Source: Alphaproteobacteria bacterium
Lineage (GTDB): Bacteria; Pseudomonadota; Alphaproteobacteria; Rs-D84
Direction: 5' to 3'
NCBI GenBank assembly: GCA_017524525.1
Contig: JAFXVM010000016.1
Location: forward strand, 45,165 to 109,164
Length of the DNA: 64,000 nt
Both the position numbers and the translations under genes were made by a program. Shown here piece by piece: positions 7,099 to 34,617 of the stretch. Under the pieces are notes generated by a model that worked only from the letters and a program-made list of their open reading frames with translations, was not told where the DNA came from and did not search any database. Position 1 is the first letter of the stretch. Every line of letters starts with the position of its first letter.

Positions 7099-9366
7099 TT
7101 AATGCAATGGTTCAAGTATTTTTACTTCTTTTGTCATTGGATCCAAAATTTTTGGTGTGCCTTCGTATCCCATGATTGCATGATGGGATGGGATTAAAAA
7201 TTCTGGTAATGGAGATGATTCACCCATCATGATGCGTTCGTGCAACATTTTTTGTACAGGTGTTTGATTAACAAAGTGTCTTTCTTGGGTTGCTTCTATT
7301 GGGCGATGGTACCAACCTTGGAAAAGGATAATTTGTTTACCAGTTTCAATTTTCATAATATCCATGACAGAATAAATCGGTTCTTCTTTTGGTGTTTCGA
7401 CATCTTTGCCGTCTTTCTTTTCAATTTTTTTGGTTATCTTTTTGCCCATCATTTCAGAGAAGATTTTTGCACTTTCTGTGTCGTTTTGACGCAATATAAT
7501 TTTTGCTGCGGTTGTAGACATAATAGTAGATGCCGCATCAGCACCATAACGTTCGCGTATCTGGTGGATATCCTGACCAATGATAAGGTAAGACACTTTT
7601 TGCCCACGTCCAAGATCTGGTCCCTGGATAACTGCGTCCAATCTTTGCATCTTTGGCATTTCGTCAAGCACGAACAGAACGGGGCATGGCCCAACTTTCT
7701 TTCCATCAACTGTATCGCCAGGTTTGTGTGCCAACAAATAATTAGACATTAATTCAATAAATATAGCAGTAATTGGATTTAATGCTTGGGCATCTACCAT
7801 ATTGATGGACAGATATACACTGACTGGTTTAACTTTGCCATCCCGTGGGTCTTTGATTCCGCGCAAATCTTCAAAGTGGAAATCGGAATGGCTGGTTCTG
7901 TTGCGAACCGCAGCATTACGGAATATTGCCAATCCTTCAACCATGGTTGATAAAATAGAACCACGTTCTTTGTCTGGCGTATTTGCAAGTTGTGTTAATT
8001 CAGCTATTGCACGTGATGAATATGCGTACCGGCGCGCTTCTTCAACTGCGTTTTGAAGCAAATCTTTCATAGGATCTGCCATCATAACCATTTGATCGCC
8101 TTGCTTTCTGCGTTCTTCCATTTCTTCGGCAATAGCAACTTGGCTGGATGTTAACCAATCAAGAATCATGGAAAGACATGCTTCGTGTCCCATCCACGCA
8201 TCTGGTATGTTTGCCCATGTTCCAATATGAACATAATTCATTGTGTTAAGTTCGCCTTTCTGTAACAAAGAATACGCAGCGTATGCATTTGGATTGTTCA
8301 TCATTGACAGATAATAATCACTTAATACAGCGGCGTCGTCTGCGTTAAAAGTTCCATTGTTCAAACGTGCGTAAAAATAATCATCGGCTTTGGCACGTTC
8401 AACCTTTGATACAATATAGTTTACCAAACCTGATAACCCGGCGCGTCCAGTATTTGCCCAGTGGGGGTCGGCACTGCTGGATTTATTATCTGGGACCAAC
8501 ACTTTGCATATAGTATCTATGTACAAATCGCGCTGTTCAGGAAGAAACGGGACGTGTTCTGGCGACAGTGGATTCCACGATGGGTAATATATACCCTTGT
8601 CAGGGTCGTCTTGACCCGCCCAATTCATAATGAACACAGGACCAACCGTTGCACGATATGCAGATGTTGTTTGTTTTAATTCTGGCTTAGGGTCGTTAAT
8701 AATCATTGATACAGTGTCGCAATCAAGAATTGTTGGTATAACGATACCTGCTGTTTTACCGGTTCCCGGAGGCGCCAAACACAAAGCAGACAAAGATTCG
8801 TCAAATTTTAACGGCATTGTTTTCCCTTTGTTCTTAAAATAGCCCAATACCATCATAAAGCCATTAAACAAGCCTTCTTTGTTTTTCCAGTCATTCCCCA
8901 TTTTCTTAATATCTGCAGCAGTCGCTTTGCGGGAAGATTTTTCGTCGTAATTATCTTTGCCTGCTGGGTTAAATTCGTTTTTAAGTGTGTCATCAACCAA
9001 AAAGCAATATGCTATGATTGGTAATATAGGTGCGATTGCAGCAAAATCTGGGTGATAAATCATGCGTGAAAACCAAAATGGAATTTCTGCGACGACTGAC
9101 ATGCCAAAAGTAGTGAACATGTTTTTGATATAAAGCCATGACCAATGCATGCTGGCAGCGCCCCAACCATATCTCCAAATATGTTCTGCGATAAATGCCA
9201 AAGCAAACGCAAAAGCACATATTAACCATATCCCAATATTCCAGCGTATGTTCCAGAATTTGCGCGCCACAGGAATTTGTTCGTGTTCTTTGTATCGCGA
9301 AGAATCAAAGATTTTTAAACCTTTGCCAGAACCACTATTAGAGAAAATGTTGAACTTTCCTGCCAT
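7099..9366 (-). CDS. virD4: VirD4/TraG-family type IV coupling protein
   Basis: N-terminal TM helices, Walker A APPGTGKT, IINDPKPEL, Walker B LFVLDEMP, QDIHQI...YG. Start taken at MAGKF (9366). Confidence 0.88.
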   Translation of the reverse strand: MAGKFNIFSNSGSGKGLKIFDSSRYKEHEQIPVARKFWNIRWNIGIWLICAFAFALAFIAEHIWRYGWGAASMHWSWLYIKNMFTTFGMSVVAEIPFWFSRMIYHPDFAAIAPILPIIAYCFLVDDTLKNEFNPAGKDNYDEKSSRKATAADIKKMGNDWKNKEGLFNGFMMVLGYFKNKGKTMPLKFDESLSALCLAPPGTGKTAGIVIPTILDCDTVSMIINDPKPELKQTTSAYRATVGPVFIMNWAGQDDPDKGIYYPSWNPLSPEHVPFLPEQRDLYIDTICKVLVPDNKSSSADPHWANTGRAGLSGLVNYIVSKVERAKADDYFYARLNNGTFNADDAAVLSDYYLSMMNNPNAYAAYSLLQKGELNTMNYVHIGTWANIPDAWMGHEACLSMILDWLTSSQVAIAEEMEERRKQGDQMVMMADPMKDLLQNAVEEARRYAYSSRAIAELTQLANTPDKERGSILSTMVEGLAIFRNAAVRNRTSHSDFHFEDLRGIKDPRDGKVKPVSVYLSINMVDAQALNPITAIFIELMSNYLLAHKPGDTVDGKKVGPCPVLFVLDEMPKMQRLDAVIQGPDLGRGQKVSYLIIGQDIHQIRERYGADAASTIMSTTAAKIILRQNDTESAKIFSEMMGKKITKKIEKKDGKDVETPKEEPIYSVMDIMKIETGKQIILFQGWYHRPIEATQERHFVNQTPVQKMLHERIMMGESSPLPEFLIPSHHAIMGYEGTPKILDPMTKEVKILEPLH

Positions 9367-27228: not shown

Positions 27229-27323
27229 GTTTTTTTCTCCTTTTGGTTAATGGGTTTACAGGTGTATTTTATATTAAAACATCTAAAATATCGTCAGGTT
27301 TGAATGCCTAGGGACGAAAATAT

Positions 27324-27557
27324 ATTGCGCGTAAAAATAAAAAAGCCATAAAAAATGGCTTTTTATTTTTGGTGGACGCGCAGGGATACACTCGGGCAAA
27401 GCCCTGCGTGGCAACCGTGACGATTTTGCTGCGTTTATACTTGCAAAATCTACTTGTTGTCGAACAGCAACTTCGTTGGAGGGTTCTCATCCCATTGCGC
27501 GTAAAAATAAAAAAGCCATAAAAAATGGCTTTTTATTTTTGGTGGACGCGCAGGGAT
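27324..27557. repeat. 64-bp direct repeat (27324-27387, 27494-27557) bounding a 170-bp tRNA-linked unit
   Basis: Each copy is the last 18 nt of tRNA-Lys plus the hairpin AAAAATAAAAAAGCCAT-AAAAA-ATGGCTTTTTATTTTT. Confidence 0.9.
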
Positions 27558-27586
27558 TCGAACCCTGGACCCACTGATTAAGAGTC
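27539..27586 (-). repeat. att site: duplicated 3' half of tRNA-Lys
   Basis: 48 bp identical to 33924-33971, running from the anticodon arm to CCA. Confidence 0.95.
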
Positions 27587-27725
27587 TTTAACGTCTATAA
27601 AACTGAGATTTAACTTCCACTTATTTGCACTATTTTACGCACAATTCGTATTAAAACAGAACTTATATGTGACAAAAGTGGGATTTAGTTTATTTTTTCT
27701 CAAACCAATCTTAAAATACTAACAA

Positions 27726-28868
27726 ATGAAAACCAAATTTAACTTTACACAAGCAACTTTGGCTAATTTGGCAACACCAACACAACAAATTAAGCATTAT
27801 ATTGTGCGCGATAGCAATCAACGTGGTTTAATATTGATGGTTAATTATGGGGGAACAAAAACATTTTACTTTCGTGCCAAACAAAAACATAAAAAAGTGA
27901 TGTTTAAAATTGGCGATTTTCCTTATTTAGATGTTGAAACTGCACGAAATAAAGCATTTATGCTTTATAAAAATATAAAAAATGGTGAATATACGGCAAC
28001 AAAACAACAAATAATGACTTTAAGTGAATTATTTTACAACGAATATTTGCCAAAATATGCAAAAGTGTTTAAAAAAGAGACAAGTTGGCATGAAAATGAA
28101 CGTATATTTAATACACATTTTAATTCTTTAAAAGATAAGCAATTAAATGATATTAGCAGGATAAACATTGACGATTGGCATAAAAATATAGGTAAAAATA
28201 ATGGGATATATATAGCGAACAGATGTCTTGCATTAATAAGACATATGTTAAATATGGCGATAAATTGGGGTTTTATAACAACAAATAATGCTACACATAT
28301 TAAGCAATTTAAAGAAACTGCGCGTGACAGGTTTTTGCAACCTGATGAAATACATAACTTTATAACTGCTTTAAATATGGCAAAAAACAAGCAATTTAAG
28401 CATTTTATACTGTTGTTGTTATTTACAGGACAAAGAAAAAGCAATATTTTATCGCTTAAATGGGAAAACATAAACTTTCACAACAATATTATGTATTTGC
28501 CAGATACAAAAAATAACCAACCTCAGCAAATTCCACTTACACAGCAAGCAATAAATGTATTTAATGATATTGGGATACGTGAAAAAGGTTGGGTTTTTCC
28601 AAGTAAAGACAGCAAAAGCGGACATTTACAAAACCCAAAGCGTTGTTGGCAACAATTATTAAAGATTGCACATATTGAAAACTTACGTATGCATGATTTA
28701 CGACGAACTTTAGGCTCTTATCAAGCAATTATTGGCAGTAGCATGAATATAATTGGCAAATCTTTGGGCCATAAATCGCTTCAATCAACCGCTGTGTATG
28801 CAAGGCTTTCTTTGGCGCCCGTCAGAGATTCAATGCAAAAAGCAACTGACGAAATATTAAAGTATTAA
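27726..28868 (+). CDS. int: Tyrosine integrase (P4-like, with arm-binding domain)
   Basis: GQRKSN (R), TKN (K), HDLRR, LGH, AVYA (Y); N-terminal RD...GL.L.V..GG.KTF. Confidence 0.95.
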   Translation: MKTKFNFTQATLANLATPTQQIKHYIVRDSNQRGLILMVNYGGTKTFYFRAKQKHKKVMFKIGDFPYLDVETARNKAFMLYKNIKNGEYTATKQQIMTLSELFYNEYLPKYAKVFKKETSWHENERIFNTHFNSLKDKQLNDISRINIDDWHKNIGKNNGIYIANRCLALIRHMLNMAINWGFITTNNATHIKQFKETARDRFLQPDEIHNFITALNMAKNKQFKHFILLLLFTGQRKSNILSLKWENINFHNNIMYLPDTKNNQPQQIPLTQQAINVFNDIGIREKGWVFPSKDSKSGHLQNPKRCWQQLLKIAHIENLRMHDLRRTLGSYQAIIGSSMNIIGKSLGHKSLQSTAVYARLSLAPVRDSMQKATDEILKY

Positions 28869-28958
28869 ATTTTTTTCATTTTGTGGGCTACTTCTGACAA
28901 TTTTTATTTTATACTGCTCGCGAAATCATTTAAAAACAACCCAAAAAAAGGATAAAAG

Positions 28959-29681
28959 ATGATGAATTTTAAAGTACATTTAGGGTATATTCACACGGAA
29001 AACAAACAACAATACAGATTTGGCTTAAAACCATTTGATTTTGATTTAACAAAATTTCCAAGTTTATTTATAAATTGTGGCAGAGAAAGAGTTTTTCCAT
29101 GTAAAAACGAATTTGTAATGGATATAATTATTAAACGAGCATTAGAAATAGAGAAATCAACGAATAATTTTAAAACGCTTGTTATCGACAATGGTCGTAT
29201 TACACATTGTTCTGCTCTTTATTATGATAATTATTATATGGTTAGACCAGAAACCGCCCTTAAACAAATAACATGTGAAATAAATCAAATTTACAAAAGA
29301 TATTTGAATTGGCCAGATTTTTTTCCTTATAAAAAATACTTCATAGCCGTTAATAATGCTTGGGGGCTTGAAAGTTATCTTGAAGACATTATGCTAAAAT
29401 TGGGACCGATAGGCGTGTATTTAGTGTTTTCTGGGGGTGGCGAAATGTTAAGGTATCCGTGTCCACTTCAAAATTATTTGTTTGGGCAAATAGTTAAGCT
29501 ACGTACAGATGATTATTATAAAGGAATAAATATGTTGCCACAACCGTATGGACCAAATTGGGGTATGGTTATGGAACGTTTTAAACCAGAACAAAAACTA
29601 AGCCAAATAATATATACAGACATGTATTACAACAATTGGTGCAAAGGTGAAGAAACACGAGATGGGTGGATTTTTGATTAA
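28959..29681 (+). CDS. Degenerate FtsK/SpoIIIE-like domain protein
   Basis: FDLTKFPSLFI, KTLVID, AL....EI....RY and LGPIGVYLVF track the FtsK motif order; Walker A and B are absent. Confidence 0.5.
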   Translation: MMNFKVHLGYIHTENKQQYRFGLKPFDFDLTKFPSLFINCGRERVFPCKNEFVMDIIIKRALEIEKSTNNFKTLVIDNGRITHCSALYYDNYYMVRPETALKQITCEINQIYKRYLNWPDFFPYKKYFIAVNNAWGLESYLEDIMLKLGPIGVYLVFSGGGEMLRYPCPLQNYLFGQIVKLRTDDYYKGINMLPQPYGPNWGMVMERFKPEQKLSQIIYTDMYYNNWCKGEETRDGWIFD

Positions 29682-29709
29682 ATTATTTGCACATAAACAA
29701 AGTTAATTC

Positions 29710-29737
29710 TTGCGAAACTTGCAAATAATGCTATACT
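29710..29737 (+). promoter_or_regulatory. Sigma70-type promoter upstream of the structured leader
   Basis: TTGCGA-16-TATACT with a TG extension. Confidence 0.55.
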
Positions 29738-29771
29738 ATGACGTGAATCATAATTAACGTGGTTCTGGGTG

Positions 29772-29927
29772 TAGAAACCTATCATATGCGTCGGCGCTGA
29801 CGTTAAAAAGCCCTACAACTGTAATGGTTGGAGGGCTGGTGAATAAGGCATTTTGTCTAATAGCCGCACAACTCATATGATTGTTTCTAACCTCCAACCG
29901 CCTTCTTTATGATTGGCGGTATTTTTT
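29772..29927 (+). ncRNA. C4/CI-like structured antisense RNA with upstream target and overlapping terminator
   Basis: GGTTGGAGG/CCTCCAACC stem; CATATGAT-T-GTTTCTA complementary to upstream TAGAAAC-CT-ATCATATG; ACCGCC/GGCGGT hairpin plus T-run. Confidence 0.6.
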
Positions 29928-29953
29928 GTGTAAAAAAAACAAAGGAGAAACCT

Positions 29954-30811
29954 ATGAAAAACATGCTTTTTGTTTTTTTAGTAATAGCATTGTCTGCATG
30001 TGATATAAACAAATACGATTATATATTAAACAAAACTGCCTTTTGCAATAAAACATCAGAAGAAATTTTTGTTTGCAAAGATGTTACACAAAAATTATTG
30101 TCAGGGCGGATTATTGAATATTTTCCTGATGGCAAAAATACAAAAAACTACTTTACGGTAAAAGACGGAAAACTAAATGGGAAACATATATCTTACTATG
30201 AAAACGGACAAGTGAAGTGGGACGGTGCCTATAAAGATGGTAAAGAGGAAGGTTTTATAAAAGTTTATTATGAAAATGGTGTTTTAAAACGGGAAGTTTT
30301 TTTTCAAGATGGTAAACTGAATGGTTTTGTTAAGGATTATTATGAAAATGGTAAAATAAAAACAGTAGGCTATGTTAACGAAGGGAAACTGAGCGGGCCA
30401 TTTTGGTCATATACGAATTTTGGTTTGCTAATGTCAGAAATAGAATACAAAATGGGTAAAATGGTAAAAAGCCGACAAGCTCCTGAAACAGAATTAAAAC
30501 TTGCCTGTAAAAAACATTTTAATTTATGTAGCCAAGACAATCGAAATGTTGGGTGTAGAAAAAAGTTATCTGGTAAAATTAGTTCTATAGAAAAAAATGG
30601 CGTATTTGTTGATTATGATGCGTTTGTTTATACAACGAAGAAATACATAAGTAACGAAAAAATAGATTCAAAATACTACTATGAATATGTTGACACAGTA
30701 GAATACGCTGCGCCAAATGGTTTAAAACAACGTGTTCGTGCATATAAAGAAACAAACGAAGAAGCTTTGTGTGACGATTTATACAAACCATTCAGAGAAT
30801 TAGGTAAATAA
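29954..30811 (+). CDS. MORN-variant repeat lipoprotein
   Basis: AAGGAG RBS, lipobox LSAC, repeated YYENG..K....Y.DGK..G units. Confidence 0.8.
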   Translation: MKNMLFVFLVIALSACDINKYDYILNKTAFCNKTSEEIFVCKDVTQKLLSGRIIEYFPDGKNTKNYFTVKDGKLNGKHISYYENGQVKWDGAYKDGKEEGFIKVYYENGVLKREVFFQDGKLNGFVKDYYENGKIKTVGYVNEGKLSGPFWSYTNFGLLMSEIEYKMGKMVKSRQAPETELKLACKKHFNLCSQDNRNVGCRKKLSGKISSIEKNGVFVDYDAFVYTTKKYISNEKIDSKYYYEYVDTVEYAAPNGLKQRVRAYKETNEEALCDDLYKPFRELGK

Positions 30812-30824
30812 AAGAGGTTTTTTT

Positions 30825-31835
30825 ATGAAAAATTATAGTGTTTTTATAGCGTTATTGCTAAGTGCGTGTGGTGGATTTGATTCAAAACAAGAGTTTTTAC
30901 AAGATTCACAAAATGCAAAAAAATTGGCTGAATTATCAAACAAACGCATTATATCATCTGATTGTGATAAATTGATTAAACTATATGATTTTGCGGTATT
31001 AAAATCACCAACAATAGAAGATTTATCTAAAATTATGCCGATTTTTGGTTTAAAGGCAGATGATGCAAAAAACATAGATAAAGTATACAAAATTGATTTT
31101 GATAAAATAGATAAATATAATTGTTACGATAATACAGACAGTTTGTTACATGAAATAGAGCAATATTGTAATAATAAATACCCCACAGAGCTTTTTAAAC
31201 GTGATGAATGCGAAGATTATTTAAGTTATATAGTATTAAATAACAATTATGTTTATAACAGAAAGCAAGATATTGAAGGCAATAGAAGTAATATAATATA
31301 TTCAGTGAAACTCAATATTCAAAGTATATATATTATGCCAGAAAAGGCAGACAAATTTTTGCCAGAATTTACGGCAACTGAATTAATAAAAGCAGATAAT
31401 GAGGTACTTGGAACATACGATAGCGATTGTTATGGTAATTTATGTGAACACGCGACACAAAATGTTACCAGATTAAATGCTGCCTTGGTTCTATATGATT
31501 ACTGTGTTTATAATAAAACATTCTTACCAAACGATGGATACGATATATGCGTTTGTTTTGCGCATGAAACCTACCAAAAAGTTAACTATAAAAACGTGAT
31601 TTATATTCACGAAAAAAAAGAACTGCCACAATCTAAAAAGACAGAATTCAATCAAATTTATAAAAAATGTGAACAGAAAATAGAAAAACAGCGAATAAAA
31701 GCAGAAAAAGAACGATATGGTGAAGCAAAAAGCGCGAATAGCGATGAGAATAATGTGTTCATTGAAGCATTAGAAAATACTGCTTGGGCACACAGAACAA
31801 TTACAGAAACACGTAAAAAAGCAGAAAACAAGTAA
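30825..31835 (+). CDS. Cys-rich hypothetical lipoprotein
   Basis: GAGG RBS, lipobox LSAC, paired Cys including ICVC. Confidence 0.7.
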   Translation: MKNYSVFIALLLSACGGFDSKQEFLQDSQNAKKLAELSNKRIISSDCDKLIKLYDFAVLKSPTIEDLSKIMPIFGLKADDAKNIDKVYKIDFDKIDKYNCYDNTDSLLHEIEQYCNNKYPTELFKRDECEDYLSYIVLNNNYVYNRKQDIEGNRSNIIYSVKLNIQSIYIMPEKADKFLPEFTATELIKADNEVLGTYDSDCYGNLCEHATQNVTRLNAALVLYDYCVYNKTFLPNDGYDICVCFAHETYQKVNYKNVIYIHEKKELPQSKKTEFNQIYKKCEQKIEKQRIKAEKERYGEAKSANSDENNVFIEALENTAWAHRTITETRKKAENK

Positions 31836-32278
31836 TGAGCAAAAGGGGACCCAATATGAAAACTTTAAACGAACCGAAAGAAAACAATAAAACAGGTAAA
31901 GAATTTGAATTACGTTTTTTACATGAATTATATGAACATATACGCAAAAAGAAAATTAAATGTGAGGTTTTTCAACCCATAGTAGACGACAATGGCATAG
32001 ATTATATAATAAGAACAAATAACGGTGAATACAGGGAAATACAGATAAAATCACGAACAAAAAAGCGCCCTTTCACAATAAAAACCGATTTTACACGACC
32101 CAAAGATTATTGGCTGATACTTTATTATAATGAAGATAACGATAAGAACATGTATATTTTAAACAAAACCGATATTGCACATGTAATAAAAAAATACGGT
32201 CACATAAATATAACAAAAGAGTTGGAACAATATAAGACTGATACTGGCGATTTTAGTCGTTTGTTTAAAAACAAATAA
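31835..32278 (+). CDS. PD-(D/E)XK superfamily nuclease
   Basis: G..FE, VFQP.VDD.GID, EIQIKS motifs; TAATG coupling to the upstream gene. Confidence 0.72.
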   Translation: MSKRGPNMKTLNEPKENNKTGKEFELRFLHELYEHIRKKKIKCEVFQPIVDDNGIDYIIRTNNGEYREIQIKSRTKKRPFTIKTDFTRPKDYWLILYYNEDNDKNMYILNKTDIAHVIKKYGHINITKELEQYKTDTGDFSRLFKNK

Positions 32279-32344
32279 ATACTAAGTTTTTCCTTAGAAA
32301 TTGCATAGTATTGTCTTAATATAACAGCACAAGGAGCAATAACA

Positions 32345-32938
32345 ATGCCGTTTGATATACAATTAAGCAAAGATTTAACACTGGATATACGTAAGTGCCC
32401 ACATTTGCTTATTGTTGGCAAAGGTGATAATTGGGCTAACTTTTCAAAAGATATTGAAAAAAGACTTTCTTCTGTTGATAACCAAACTTCGCTTCGTAAT
32501 TTTGTATATATTTTACGTTGTTTAGACGGCATAACCGCACGAGATAAAGAAGTATTAAATGAACGATATGAACTATTAAGTGCGCTGGATTGCTGCAATA
32601 TAGAGCAATTTAATAAACGATTTAAGTATGAAAGTTTAATGTATGAAGTTTTGTTCGTATCACCAGCAAAAACGAAATACAACTATGATTTGTTAAAAGA
32701 AGTGTTAATGAAAGGACGTGCAGTTGGTATGCATGTGGTTATGTTTGTTGATAGTATAAACGATTTTGAAAATAATATAGATTTATTAGATATGTTTACA
32801 GTTAAATTGGTATATAAGGCAAAAACGGGGGAAGAAAGCATAAAGTTAACTGGTTATAAAGGTGCTGAAAAGTTAAAAGGTAATGAGTTCTTGTTGTGTG
32901 AACTGGGTAAGCAGCCAGTAATTTATAAAGCCAATTAA
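32345..32938 (+). CDS. Degenerate FtsK/SpoIIIE-like domain protein
   Basis: LDIRKCPHLLIVG, ERY..L.....NIEQFN, KGRAVGMHVV, GAEKLKG; no GSGKS or DE. Confidence 0.65.
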   Translation: MPFDIQLSKDLTLDIRKCPHLLIVGKGDNWANFSKDIEKRLSSVDNQTSLRNFVYILRCLDGITARDKEVLNERYELLSALDCCNIEQFNKRFKYESLMYEVLFVSPAKTKYNYDLLKEVLMKGRAVGMHVVMFVDSINDFENNIDLLDMFTVKLVYKAKTGEESIKLTGYKGAEKLKGNEFLLCELGKQPVIYKAN

Positions 32939-33033
32939 TGGGTTTAATGCTGTATAAATTACTGAAACTGTTTTTGCAATGTAGTTACACTGTTTTTCTG
33001 TTTATATGCTGTTACACGGTAAAAAAAGGCGAA

Positions 33034-33570
33034 TTATAAAGAGTTAAACATTGTTTCGCTCGTCCATAGGTTGCCAAAATCGATTTTGCTGCTTTTTAAG
33101 TTATATTCTTTGGTAACATAATTAAGAACATCTTCGTTAAATACTTTACGAACTAACAAGTGGTTCATAACTGGTGAAAAGTTATGCATGTTTGAATAAT
33201 TAGTATATTGCATATCGTATGTTAAATATAAATAAGGGTAACGATAGCAAGTATTAGATAAGGCGACATCTAACTTTGGTAAAGTGTGTTCGCATAAGTT
33301 AAAGACAGAATGTACATGATAAACATTTGTTTTACCGTGTTCAATAATTGTAACAGACGGCAAAGGGTGTTTATACCAATATTTGCCTTGTAGTTGGTTA
33401 AGCATACGCGAATATATACTACGTGCGTTTTCTTTGGCTTTATATACATCTTTTTTAGGTTTATTAAAGTGTATTGTAAGAAATGCAAGATTATCGCAAC
33501 TTTGCATATATAAAGATTTACGTAAGAATTGCTGTATTGCTGTGATATTGAGTATTGTTGCTTCTATCAT
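33034..33570 (-). CDS. HUH-family rolling-circle Rep/relaxase
   Basis: Motif I FLTIHF, motif II YHVHSVF, motif III YVTKE; GGAGG RBS. Confidence 0.7.
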   Translation of the reverse strand: MIEATILNITAIQQFLRKSLYMQSCDNLAFLTIHFNKPKKDVYKAKENARSIYSRMLNQLQGKYWYKHPLPSVTIIEHGKTNVYHVHSVFNLCEHTLPKLDVALSNTCYRYPYLYLTYDMQYTNYSNMHNFSPVMNHLLVRKVFNEDVLNYVTKEYNLKSSKIDFGNLWTSETMFNSL

Positions 33571-33924
33571 TGTTACCTCCTTTTTTTGAATTAATACACG
33601 TTAGTTATATTTGTTCTTTTTATTTATTTTTGTATATAGATATTACATAGGTAAAACCTTCGTTTTTACCTTTAATAACTTTAAAACCCCACAAATTTAA
33701 GATTGACACCCTTTTTGCCAAAATAAATTTCACAGGTGATGTATATATATATTTATCCCAAAAATTCATTTTTGTTAACCACAATGTAAAAAAAATTTAA
33801 AAATCGCAGAAAACCGTGCTGTATAGACGTAAAAAGTGTCAAAAACGGGAAAAAATTTTTAAAAAAAAGCAACGTATAATTAAAAAAAGCAATAAAAAAG
33901 GCTGTAAAAACAGCCAAATATTCT

Positions 33925-34000
33925 TGGTGGACGCGCAGGGATTCGAACCCTGGACCCACTGATTAAGAGTCAGTTGCTCTACCAACTGAGCTACGCATCC
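33925..34000 (-). tRNA. tRNA-Lys(CTT)
   Basis: GGATGCGTAGCTCAGTTGGTAGAGC..ACTGA-CT-CTT-AA-TCAGT..GGTTCGAATCC..CCA, 76 nt. Confidence 0.98.
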
Positions 34001-34128
34001 AAAACTGTGTCGCAACCGATTATATAATATTTTCCGCTAAATGCAAGTTTTTATCGTATAAAGGTTGAAGTGAATTTTTAATTGTTATTTATAAATTTGT
34101 TTTTTATACTTTGTCCAAAGGATGAAAT

Positions 34129-34617
34129 ATGAAAGTGTTTGTCACTGAAAAATATATGAAAAACGCCTTTGATAAAATAACACAACTTCAAAAAGAACTT
34201 GAAAACATAAGACGCGAAAAGAATATCTCTTTCGAAGGTGATACTAATACTTGGCATGATAATTTCGCTTATGAAAACCTGACTCGTCAGGAAAAATTAG
34301 CCGAAGACAGATTATTCAAAGCTATGAAAGATGCTGAAAATTTTGAAGTGTGTTCAAATGTTCTTAAGTGTGCACCAGATACTGTTGGGCTTTATTGCTG
34401 GGTAAAGGTGGCGCAAGAAAATTTAGAAACCGGTGAAGAAACTGAAAAAGTATTGGGTTTGGTGCCTTTGGGTGATGAAGATTACGGTAAAAAGATTTTC
34501 GCTTATAATTCCCCCGCTGTTTGTTCTTTGATGGGGGCAAAAATTGGTGATGAACGTGTCGTTAAAATACCAATTGGAACACTGAAAATAACAATATTAA
34601 GTATTGAGACAATGTAA
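34129..34617 (+). CDS. GreA/GreB-family factor (atypical tip)
   Basis: Coiled coil with WHDNFAYE, C-terminal SP...LMGAKIGD...IP.G. Confidence 0.7.
   Translation: MKVFVTEKYMKNAFDKITQLQKELENIRREKNISFEGDTNTWHDNFAYENLTRQEKLAEDRLFKAMKDAENFEVCSNVLKCAPDTVGLYCWVKVAQENLETGEETEKVLGLVPLGDEDYGKKIFAYNSPAVCSLMGAKIGDERVVKIPIGTLKITILSIETM

Follow-up and report, generated by a model that had tools for sequence, protein, structure and literature searches.

The window considered here is a stretch of 64,000 nucleotides (nt) from contig JAFXVM010000016.1 (assembly GCA_017524525.1). The genome, of 965 kb and 96.5% complete, belongs to an alphaproteobacterium whose named relatives are uncultured Alphaproteobacteria known as metagenome-assembled genomes (MAGs) from rumen and gut. 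Between two copies of a perfect 48-bp direct repeat (27539-27586 and 33924-33971) the window holds a candidate integrative element of about 6.4 kb, with an integrase gene, a gene for a putative rolling-circle replication initiator (Rep), two genes for FtsK-like proteins, and a slot of cargo genes behind a structured leader RNA. The interval between the repeats is filled by seven open reading frames (ORFs), and all seven frames are open; the survey took in ORFs of at least 40 amino acids (aa). The features of the element are listed below with strand and, in parentheses, the source of each call.

27539..27586, no strand: attL, the left 48-bp copy of the attachment (att) repeat, duplicating the 3′ part of tRNA-Lys(CTT) (repeat comparison)
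27726..28868, plus strand: tyrosine integrase, 380 aa, with an N-terminal arm-binding domain (Pfam, PHROG)
28959..29681, plus strand: ORF2, 240 aa, provisionally an FtsK-fold protein, with no conserved Walker A or Walker B motif (predicted fold)
29710..29737, plus strand: promoter-like site, TTGCGA and TATACT with a 16-nt spacer and TG before the second hexamer (motif scan)
29742..29927, plus strand: structured leader RNA, 186 nt, ending in an intrinsic terminator (fold z-score -4.78)
29954 (likely start)..30811, plus strand: ORF3, MORN-variant repeat lipoprotein, 285 aa (Pfam, lipobox)
30825..31835, plus strand: ORF4, cysteine-rich lipoprotein, 336 aa (no family match)
31835..32278, plus strand: ORF5, 147-aa cargo protein (sub-threshold matches only, in Pfam, PADLOC and NCBIfam)
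32345..32938, plus strand: ORF6, 197 aa, FtsK-related, lacking the Walker A lysine and the Walker B acidic residues (family profile)
33034..33570, minus strand: Rep, single-domain HUH endonuclease, 178 aa (motifs, AlphaFold2 model, weak family matches)
33571..33923, no strand: conserved non-coding stretch of about 350 bp from rep to attR (alignment of four elements)
33924..33971, no strand: attR, the right 48-bp copy, within the intact tRNA gene (repeat comparison)
33925..34000, minus strand: tRNA-Lys(CTT), the integration target (ARAGORN; Rfam tRNA 74.7 bits)

The right copy of the repeat consists of the 3′ 47 nt of tRNA-Lys(CTT) plus one base, and therefore the block of identity begins at the anticodon stem of the tRNA and extends to its 3′ end, as is usual where a tyrosine integrase targets a tRNA. 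The G+C content is 0.29-0.33 between the repeats and 0.35-0.40 in the flanks. None of the seven element proteins has a capsid, terminase, portal, primase-helicase, relaxase or mating-pore match in Pfam, PHROGs, NCBIfam or PADLOC, and the PADLOC scan found no defence family above noise. The initial annotation, made from the letters of the sequence, had described perfect 48-bp att repeats, seven ORFs, and a lack of capsid, terminase, primase-helicase and conjugation genes, and the repeat comparison, the ORF listing and the four databases agree with it on all of these points.

The integrase, which had also been called intact, is by its sequence an intact P4-type tyrosine recombinase. Coverage of the Pfam Phage_integrase domain (PF00589) is nearly complete (positions 2-168 of 172, E 4e-25, 89 bits against a cut-off of 27.1), the N-terminus matches Arm-DNA-bind_3 (1.7e-9, 38.1 bits against a cut-off of 27) and Phage_int_SAM_3 (4e-5), and PHROG 1 (integrase) is matched at 3e-52. 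The translation displays HDLRR and a C-terminal Y in VYARL. Across related elements the integrase is 65-84% identical.

Important is the recurrence of the whole arrangement. At least four further species-level lineages of uncultured Alphaproteobacteria from gut or rumen share the layout of the element, with protein identities of 31-84%, and in each of them it sits at a tRNA-Lys gene (CTT or TTT). Three such elements are given here with the percent identity of their proteins to those of the window.

Genome G065, locus L015, same genus: integrase 65%, ORF2 35%, ORF3 absent, ORF4 34%, ORF6 33%, Rep 49%; at tRNA-Lys(TTT); att repeat of 46 bp, perfect, copies 5.5 kb apart
Locus L021, a rumen MAG: integrase 78%, ORF2 absent, ORF3 41%, ORF4 47%, ORF6 53%, Rep 74%; at tRNA-Lys(CTT); att repeat of 53 nt, 98%
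Locus L023, UBA1185: integrase 84%, ORF2 32%, ORF3 absent, ORF4 48%, ORF6 45%, Rep 81%; at tRNA-Lys(TTT); att repeat of 61 nt, 90%

Further partial or duplicate views of the element are found at four loci (L022, L119, L120 and L147). The initial annotation had suggested a search for integrase, Rep and FtsK-like genes together at tRNA genes of related genomes, and had held that a gene set conserved nowhere else would mark a decayed remnant. The order integrase, ORF2 (where present), cargo, ORF6 and Rep does recur at tRNA-Lys genes of other species, with att repeats of its own in each. The gene set thus belongs to a conserved family of elements rather than being an isolated, decayed remnant.

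Relatives of Rep (E <= 0.01) reach beyond this family and occur in 45 of 201 genomes, where, as with all genome counts below, the genomes are related and not independent. They include integrase-plus-Rep pairs beside tRNA-Thr(GGT) that have no FtsK-like genes. In two genomes, G034 and G017 (L016; L017 465-2836), such pairs lie on the 5′ side of the tRNA. In the first of these (L016 8058-8102, 8207-8280 and 15148-15185) a repeat of the 5′ part of the tRNA lies at a distance of 6.9 kb (89%), and one of the 3′ part at 149 bp (93%). Such an arrangement is unusual for tRNA integration.

Among 1.84 billion representatives, the family of Rep itself forms 37 clusters at the 50% identity level, with members mostly of 160-245 aa. 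An alignment of 29 sequences has eight invariant residues, F30, W65, E77, G79, H85, H87, Y151 and K154, and a nearly invariant E155; they map to motif I, the HUH motif (H85, H87) and the YxxK tyrosine motif (Y151, K154). An AlphaFold2 (AF2) model built on the family alignment has a predicted local distance difference test (pLDDT) score of 91.5. With this model Foldseek found nothing at E <= 0.001, and a wide search with VIA-align placed SIRV1 ORF119 at the top (Z 6.6, root-mean-square deviation 3.5, 109 residues aligned), with HUH Reps or nickases in 10 of the 50 listed rows, all at Z < 8 and interleaved with other ferredoxin-like folds. Neither the single protein nor its profile gave anything meaningful against the sequences of the PDB. 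The Pfam family PF23343, REP_ORF2-G2P, is matched by 28 of the 29 family members (E <= 0.05, best E 1.7e-7), but the window Rep reaches 18.7 bits (E 0.0022) against a gathering cut-off of 27.8 bits and is thus a distant relative of that family, not a member. The invariant motifs, the high-confidence model and the weak family matches together support a single-domain HUH initiator without a helicase, in keeping with the HUH Rep of the initial annotation.

REP_ORF2-G2P is the initiator of filamentous (inovirus) and plectro-type phages, and it is the sole Pfam family touched by the Rep lineage. The element could on this ground be a derivative or a satellite of an inovirus-like prophage, with a phage Rep, FtsK-fold relics of an assembly ATPase, lipoproteins that once served in the envelope or in adsorption, and a helper phage. 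Its size class of 5.5-6.4 kb and its tRNA integration fit small integrated filamentous phages, and satellite filamentous phages of Vibrio with little beyond Rep are known. However, a Zot/pI-type ATPase was found neither in the element nor in the 96.5%-complete genome (Zot-type PF05707), and the element is thus not a recognisable inovirus. No ORF has a structural match among the PHROGs, and Rep is unmatched in 50,697 phage records, as it is in 72,556 plasmid records, while a viral contig collection gave no locus. In addition, ORF3 to ORF5 vary between elements and occur elsewhere without integrase or Rep, as cargo does and unlike virion genes, and the proteins to which ORF6 aligns are FtsK, EccC and TcpA rather than Zot. 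A filamentous-phage origin is accordingly considered quite improbable.

Between rep and attR the non-coding sequence has a mean column identity of 74% across four elements whose Reps are 49-81% identical, and it contains inverted repeats. This exceeds what is expected where the proteins are 31-84% identical, and the region is for that reason read as cis-acting. It is a candidate site for the rep promoter, an origin or nick site, and integrase arm sites.

ORF6 is FtsK-related, as judged by its family profile. It has 17 relatives in 5.8 billion proteins, of 186-231 aa, none with a Pfam domain, and ORF6 alone scores 14 bits against Pfam FtsK, below the cut-off of 24. The family profile matches solved structures of EccC (5fv0, 2.4e-6), FtsK (2ius, 1.2e-5) and TcpA (6o1w, 2.4e-3), and in the majority of the family's genomes it also picks up the host FtsK of 740-780 aa. 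FtsK landmarks persist in the alignment, namely those around the P-loop, the RY...NI..YN helix and the GRAVG.H strand; at identities of 31-87%, 18 of its positions are invariant and a further 23 nearly so. At the position of the FtsK P-loop, GxxGxGK[ST], the family reads CPHLLIVGKGD, and Walker A is absent in 18 of 18 sequences. The Walker B strand, as read from the alignment, is VLFVSP (consensus LASP) and has no acidic pair.

Twenty-seven ORFs of related genomes match the ORF6 profile. A canonical GxxxxGK[ST] is present in 17 of these (248-382 aa) and is lacking in five ORF6-type proteins and five others. Since Walker A is kept in 17 of the 27 and in none of the five ORF6-type proteins, the loss of the ATPase motifs is lineage-specific. 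The 17 loci with intact Walker A encode stand-alone FtsK motor-domain proteins (among them L123, L125, L131, L133 and L136-L139). By eye, FtsK-like genes with or without Walker A adjoin a gene resembling the uracil-DNA-glycosylase superfamily at three loci (L117, L122 and L123), and the genome of L122 (G199) has two tandem FtsK-like genes, both without Walker motifs.

ORF2 has five homologues in 5.8 billion proteins and no sequence match in Pfam, PHROGs or PDB, a search of its profile against PDB included. Its AF2 model is of moderate quality (pLDDT 61.4, predicted template-modelling score 0.66). The top Foldseek matches of this model are EssC D3 (6.1e-5), EccC (8.9e-5), FtsK (3.1e-4) and TcpA (to 5e-3), with template-modelling scores of only 0.41-0.50. 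The Walker A P-loop is missing in all seven family sequences, and the Walker B strand, as placed by the model, reads IAVNNA or IVND/IVKG with no acidic pair. ORF2 is therefore provisionally taken as a predicted FtsK-fold protein. Of the "two dead FtsK-like proteins" of the initial annotation, ORF6 stands firmly by its family profile, and ORF2 stands provisionally, on a model of pLDDT 61. The two were also considered as paralogues by sequence, which was rejected (BLASTP E 0.27, hhalign probability 1.6%); a complex prediction for the pair scored 0.00 and is uninformative either way.

By structure and by profile, ORF2 and ORF6 come closest to the degenerate ATPase domains D2 and D3 of EssC/EccC, FtsK-fold domains for binding or regulation rather than the main motor. 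In EssC/EccC these domains belong to one large membrane secretion protein, whereas ORF2 and ORF6 are separate small proteins of a mobile element.

The combination of integrase, rolling-circle Rep and FtsK-related genes in a small tRNA-integrated element recalls the integrative and conjugative elements of actinomycetes (AICEs) of the pSAM2 type, as the available parts of two accounts describe them (PMC2440964, PMC5704250). Transfer of that kind would require that ORF2 and ORF6 themselves pump double-stranded DNA in the manner of FtsK. Neither protein has the Walker A lysine or the Walker B acidic pair, whereas AICEs use an active TraB/FtsK translocase; the element, having no active translocase, is thus not an AICE. 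On length alone, 197 and 240 aa are no more than the motor domain, which leaves no room for a membrane anchor; they are too short for the FtsK membrane-anchoring N-terminal part or the C-terminal gamma domain. The host is moreover a Gram-negative alphaproteobacterium, and the available text of one account restricts this double-strand transfer mode to multicellular, mycelial Actinobacteria (PMC5704250). Transfer by the two proteins themselves is therefore very improbable indeed.

The slot between ORF2 and ORF6 varies from element to element. In the window it holds the MORN lipoprotein ORF3, ORF4 and ORF5; in G065 it holds a small membrane protein and ORF4, and in others ORF4 alone or other genes. 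ORF3 matches Pfam MORN_2 (2.1e-7) and, below the cut-off, the NCBIfam adhesin LIC20035 (6.3e-10), and its lipobox was read from the translation; among the three elements listed above it is present at L021 and absent from L015 and L023. ORF4, which is 34-48% identical in all three, has no family in Pfam, PHROGs, PADLOC or NCBIfam, and ESM Atlas gave no usable match. In G065 the first cargo gene after the leader RNA encodes a 74-aa double-membrane-helix protein (L015 7507-7731), which presumably resembles the superinfection-immunity proteins of phages.

A cassette in another genome, G077 (L083 7030-9130), shows that this cargo also travels apart from the element. Directly downstream of tRNA-Thr(TGT), it has in order the same leader RNA, a gene for an 80-aa membrane protein, an ORF4 homologue (57% identical) and an ORF5 homologue (58%), and no integrase, Rep or ORF6. 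Thus ORF4 and ORF5 are portable cargo and not core functions, and a core transfer or exclusion function for ORF4, which had been considered, is rejected on the same ground. Over its C-terminal ~65 residues, ORF4 hardly differs between this cassette and the window, which suggests a recent exchange.

The slot opens in the same manner in five of five elements, with a promoter-like site, an RNA of about 186 nt with a terminator, a ribosome-binding site and a start codon. In the window the leader RNA ends 26 nt before the cargo start codon, with the ribosome-binding site in between. The initial annotation had read the cargo as gated by an antisense RNA, which is not borne out, as the RNA at 29742-29927 lies on the sense strand upstream of the cargo, behind a promoter-like site and ending in a terminator. 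Promoter-like sites in the region number 36, against a mean of 38.3 in shuffled sequences; there is no excess, and thus nothing points to an antisense transcript.

The leader RNA is not confined to the element. A covariance model (R1) made from the five copies finds matches in 141 of 151 family genomes, with at least 1,270 full-length matches (150 listed and 1,126 more) and up to 17 scored per genome. The window genome (G000) has four sense copies, including C5:22424-22597, C13:67358-67546 and C9:11186-11405(-). The copies are of about 175-190 nt, each with a promoter-like site and terminator of its own (loci L049-L081). In 39 aligned copies 92.8% of the cells pair, against 37-47% when the partners are slid by one to three columns, and compensatory changes are found in 37 of 44 pairs, the alignment having been fitted to its covariance model, which favours both figures. 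The sequence CCUCCAAC, nearly invariant, occurs twice in the RNA, once in a local hairpin and once right next to the terminator. A single GGUUGGAGG is able to pair with either copy, which suggests a switch.

On inspection, 33 copies have a -35/-10-like pair just upstream and a varied gene just downstream. About two-thirds of these genes start with a signal-peptide-like or membrane segment by eye, and others include genes for helix-turn-helix proteins and for a cytosine methyltransferase-like protein. In Rfam the closest family is sRNA-Xcc1 (RF02221), whose score of 28.1 bits stays below the gathering score of 53 and whose match covers only 29826-29907. The likeness lies in the 3′ half, where an outer GG-rich/CC-rich helix encloses two hairpins. 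A further likeness is the setting in mobile DNA, since sRNA-Xcc1 is described as an RNA of integrons, genomic islands and prophages, upstream of accessory genes (PMC12189769, PMC7313666). However, the leader RNA is ~100 nt longer, has a 5′ hairpin, long-range helices and a terminator of its own, and is mostly chromosomal in its host family. It may be a new, unannotated class of riboregulator.

The initial annotation held that the element fits neither P4-like satellites nor AICEs. For P4-like satellites this agrees with the gene content: the P4-type integrase with arm-binding and catalytic domains, the tRNA target, the small size and a presumed dependence on a helper are shared, but there are no primase-helicase, capsid-redirecting or helper-control genes, an HUH Rep stands in their place, and no capsid gene was found in the genome. 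Lacking a primase-helicase, the element is thus not a P4-like satellite. The claim nevertheless overlooks a third class, the integrative mobilisable elements (IMEs) of streptococci, which pair a relaxase related to rolling-circle replication (RCR) initiators with an FtsK-related coupling protein, TcpA. According to the available part of the account that describes them, TcpA is found in 83 of 118 such IMEs, and some sit at tRNA-Lys (PMC5704250).

Like those IMEs, as far as that part of the source describes them, the element is small and integrated at a tRNA, has an integrase, a small HUH/RCR-type Rep and an FtsK-related protein, and lacks mating-pore genes. The streptococcal IMEs use Rep as a relaxase and depend on a helper, whereas a relaxase role of the present Rep is only putative. 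Their hosts are Firmicutes, in contrast to the alphaproteobacterial host here. Instead of TcpA there are two FtsK-fold proteins, Walker-less and, at 197 and 240 aa, too short for a membrane anchor, and the conjugation-type genes seen in the host are only VirB4-, VirD4- and VirB10-like, not the TcpA-type helpers proposed for IMEs in the same portion of text. In function the element comes closest to an integrative mobilisable element, and it looks like a new variant that is alphaproteobacterial and has ATPase-dead FtsK-fold proteins. In the open-access texts searched no description of Walker-less FtsK-like proteins in elements with integrase and rolling-circle Rep was found, only papers on IMEs and AICEs.

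With moderate confidence the element is read as an intact member of a small, tRNA-Lys-specific family of integrative, rolling-circle, mobilisable elements of 5.5-6.4 kb in alphaproteobacteria whose genomes measure about 1 Mb, and it may plausibly depend on a helper. Under this view the integrase would recombine the 48-bp tRNA-Lys block, restoring the tRNA upon integration, and would excise a circle of 6.4 kb. Rep would nick the circle within the conserved ~350-bp region beside attR and start rolling-circle replication with the helicase and polymerase of the host; the nick could alternatively feed single-strand transfer. ORF2 and ORF6, ATPase-dead and soluble, may serve as accessory, adaptor or regulator subunits that link the Rep-DNA complex to an active motor, and the cargo genes would be transcribed behind the host-type leader RNA with its terminator.

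Candidate motors are the FtsK of the host, which is among the motors it encodes, or a VirD4-like coupling protein of scattered host type IV secretion genes. A VirD4-like gene lies in the window itself (7426-8793, minus strand, equal to C10:52590-53957). The VirB4-like gene (C12:50829-53249) stands alone among housekeeping genes (by eye mreC, PBP2, rodA, topA and dnaG), and with the VirB10-like gene (C3:55928-56452) the three are on three separate contigs. Neither a Zot-type ATPase nor an HK97 capsid gene was found in the 96.5%-complete genome, so that a phage helper is not visible, although absence from a draft genome is weak evidence. The more specific proposal, that the dead FtsK-fold adaptors borrow a host FtsK or VirD4-like motor to segregate or export rolling-circle DNA, and that the leader RNA is at the same time a new class of riboregulator, is unlikely as a whole.

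Several observations weigh against an intact mobilisable element. No excisionase gene was identified among the element ORFs, and no origin or nick site was identified in the element. ORF6-type proteins (E < 1e-50) are found in only 6 of 299 family genomes, all of one genus. ORF2 is absent from the otherwise complete element at L021 and is thus not essential, and any role of the FtsK-fold proteins is pure inference. The copy in one genome (G138) has decayed: between its ORF6 homologue and tRNA-Lys(CTT), all that remains of Rep is the last 15 residues. Rep belongs to none of the families named for IMEs (Rep_trans/MobT, PF01719, PHA00330, PF02407) in the available part of PMC5704250, and touches PF23343 only. 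The scattered type IV secretion genes of the host may serve protein secretion rather than DNA transfer. Finally, a search of public sequencing runs for the circular attP form and the empty attB, which the initial annotation had proposed, gave no support: of 20 animal gut metagenome runs that contain parts of the window the contigs of four were examined, and these have no attP circle or clean attB junction, and no contig spans the element.

Some of these points would equally fit an immobilised, decaying island in which integrase and Rep are leftovers, the FtsK-like proteins are pseudo-enzymes, and selection acts on the lipoprotein cargo only. The ATPase motifs are gone from both FtsK-fold proteins, ORF2 is missing from one element and Rep is reduced to 15 residues in another, no excisionase gene was found, and ORF6-type proteins are rare. 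Decay is however hard to reconcile with att repeats that are perfect both in the window (48 bp) and in G065 (46 bp), and with the presence of elements in two tRNA-Lys isoacceptor genes, which implies separate integrations. The seven frames are open, the catalytic residues of Rep are invariant in 29 sequences, and the non-coding region beside rep is 74% conserved. In ORF6 the conserved positions and the stable length (178-231 aa) are not the pattern of a pseudogene. A decaying island is thus held to be unlikely, though far from negligible.

Two joints in the metagenome contigs lie near the ends of the element. One, from 27235 to 34078 in run X2, was not counted as a junction, as its short side is of 21 letters and it is off the att sites. 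The other comes from a goat-gut run (X7), where 27314 and 34056 are linked, on opposite strands, within a contig whose short side is of 87 letters; it hints that the segment of tRNA plus element is inverted or otherwise placed in that strain; the same run has no cover at 30012-31768, which carries no weight as evidence. An empty-site comparison was also attempted. Of 121 genus genomes, 13, that of the window included, carry a relative of the gene at 34129-34617, to the right of the tRNA, and tRNA-Lys adjoins it in 0 of the 9 loci checked, synteny being too eroded for the test.

A third partial copy of the repeat is present at 27336-27416. It was considered as an att site or as a sign of tandem or older integration, and was rejected because it is part of a host-wide repeat, which lies downstream of tRNA genes of many kinds. 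The copy in the window is as follows.

27327-27557, core 27366-27510, minus strand: tRNA-linked repeat (found also elsewhere in the genome)

Other copies in the window genome are at C8:70942, C4:8253, C17:47606 and 4540, C13:55955, C12:23-247 and C9:11954. Each repeat consists of a conserved core of ~110 nt, a copy of the last ~18-22 nt of the preceding tRNA, and a copy of the terminator of that tRNA; the preceding tRNAs are those for Lys, Met, Arg, Gly, Gln and Val. The 5′ part of the repeat is complementary to its tRNA-derived 3′ part, and the repeats are sometimes in tandem at ~170 bp. The core, for which Rfam has no match, occurs in 132 of 201 genomes. In its make-up the repeat is reminiscent of the tyrT/rtT repeats of E. 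coli. That rtT repeats exist is documented in the available part of 10.1101/2024.07.17.603846.

Two of the features described may outweigh the element itself in importance. One is the unannotated, strongly covarying leader RNA, which stands before many accessory genes, a good number of them for secreted proteins or lipoproteins, in nearly every genome of the family; the other is the family of tRNA-linked repeats, which copies the 3′ end of each preceding tRNA. If the reading of the leader RNA is true, it would control genes for accessory and secreted proteins, and mobile elements would have adopted it for the expression of their cargo. Almost nothing is known of gene exchange in uncultured gut and rumen Alphaproteobacteria with genomes below 1 Mb, and the element family offers a compact, testable unit made up of a single integrase, a Rep of 178 aa and a cis region of 350 bp. 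Its conserved FtsK-fold pseudo-ATPases raise the question of what role catalytically dead relatives of a DNA pump have in mobile DNA. If they do act as adaptors that borrow a host motor, this would be a strategy of transfer or maintenance undescribed in Gram-negative bacteria.

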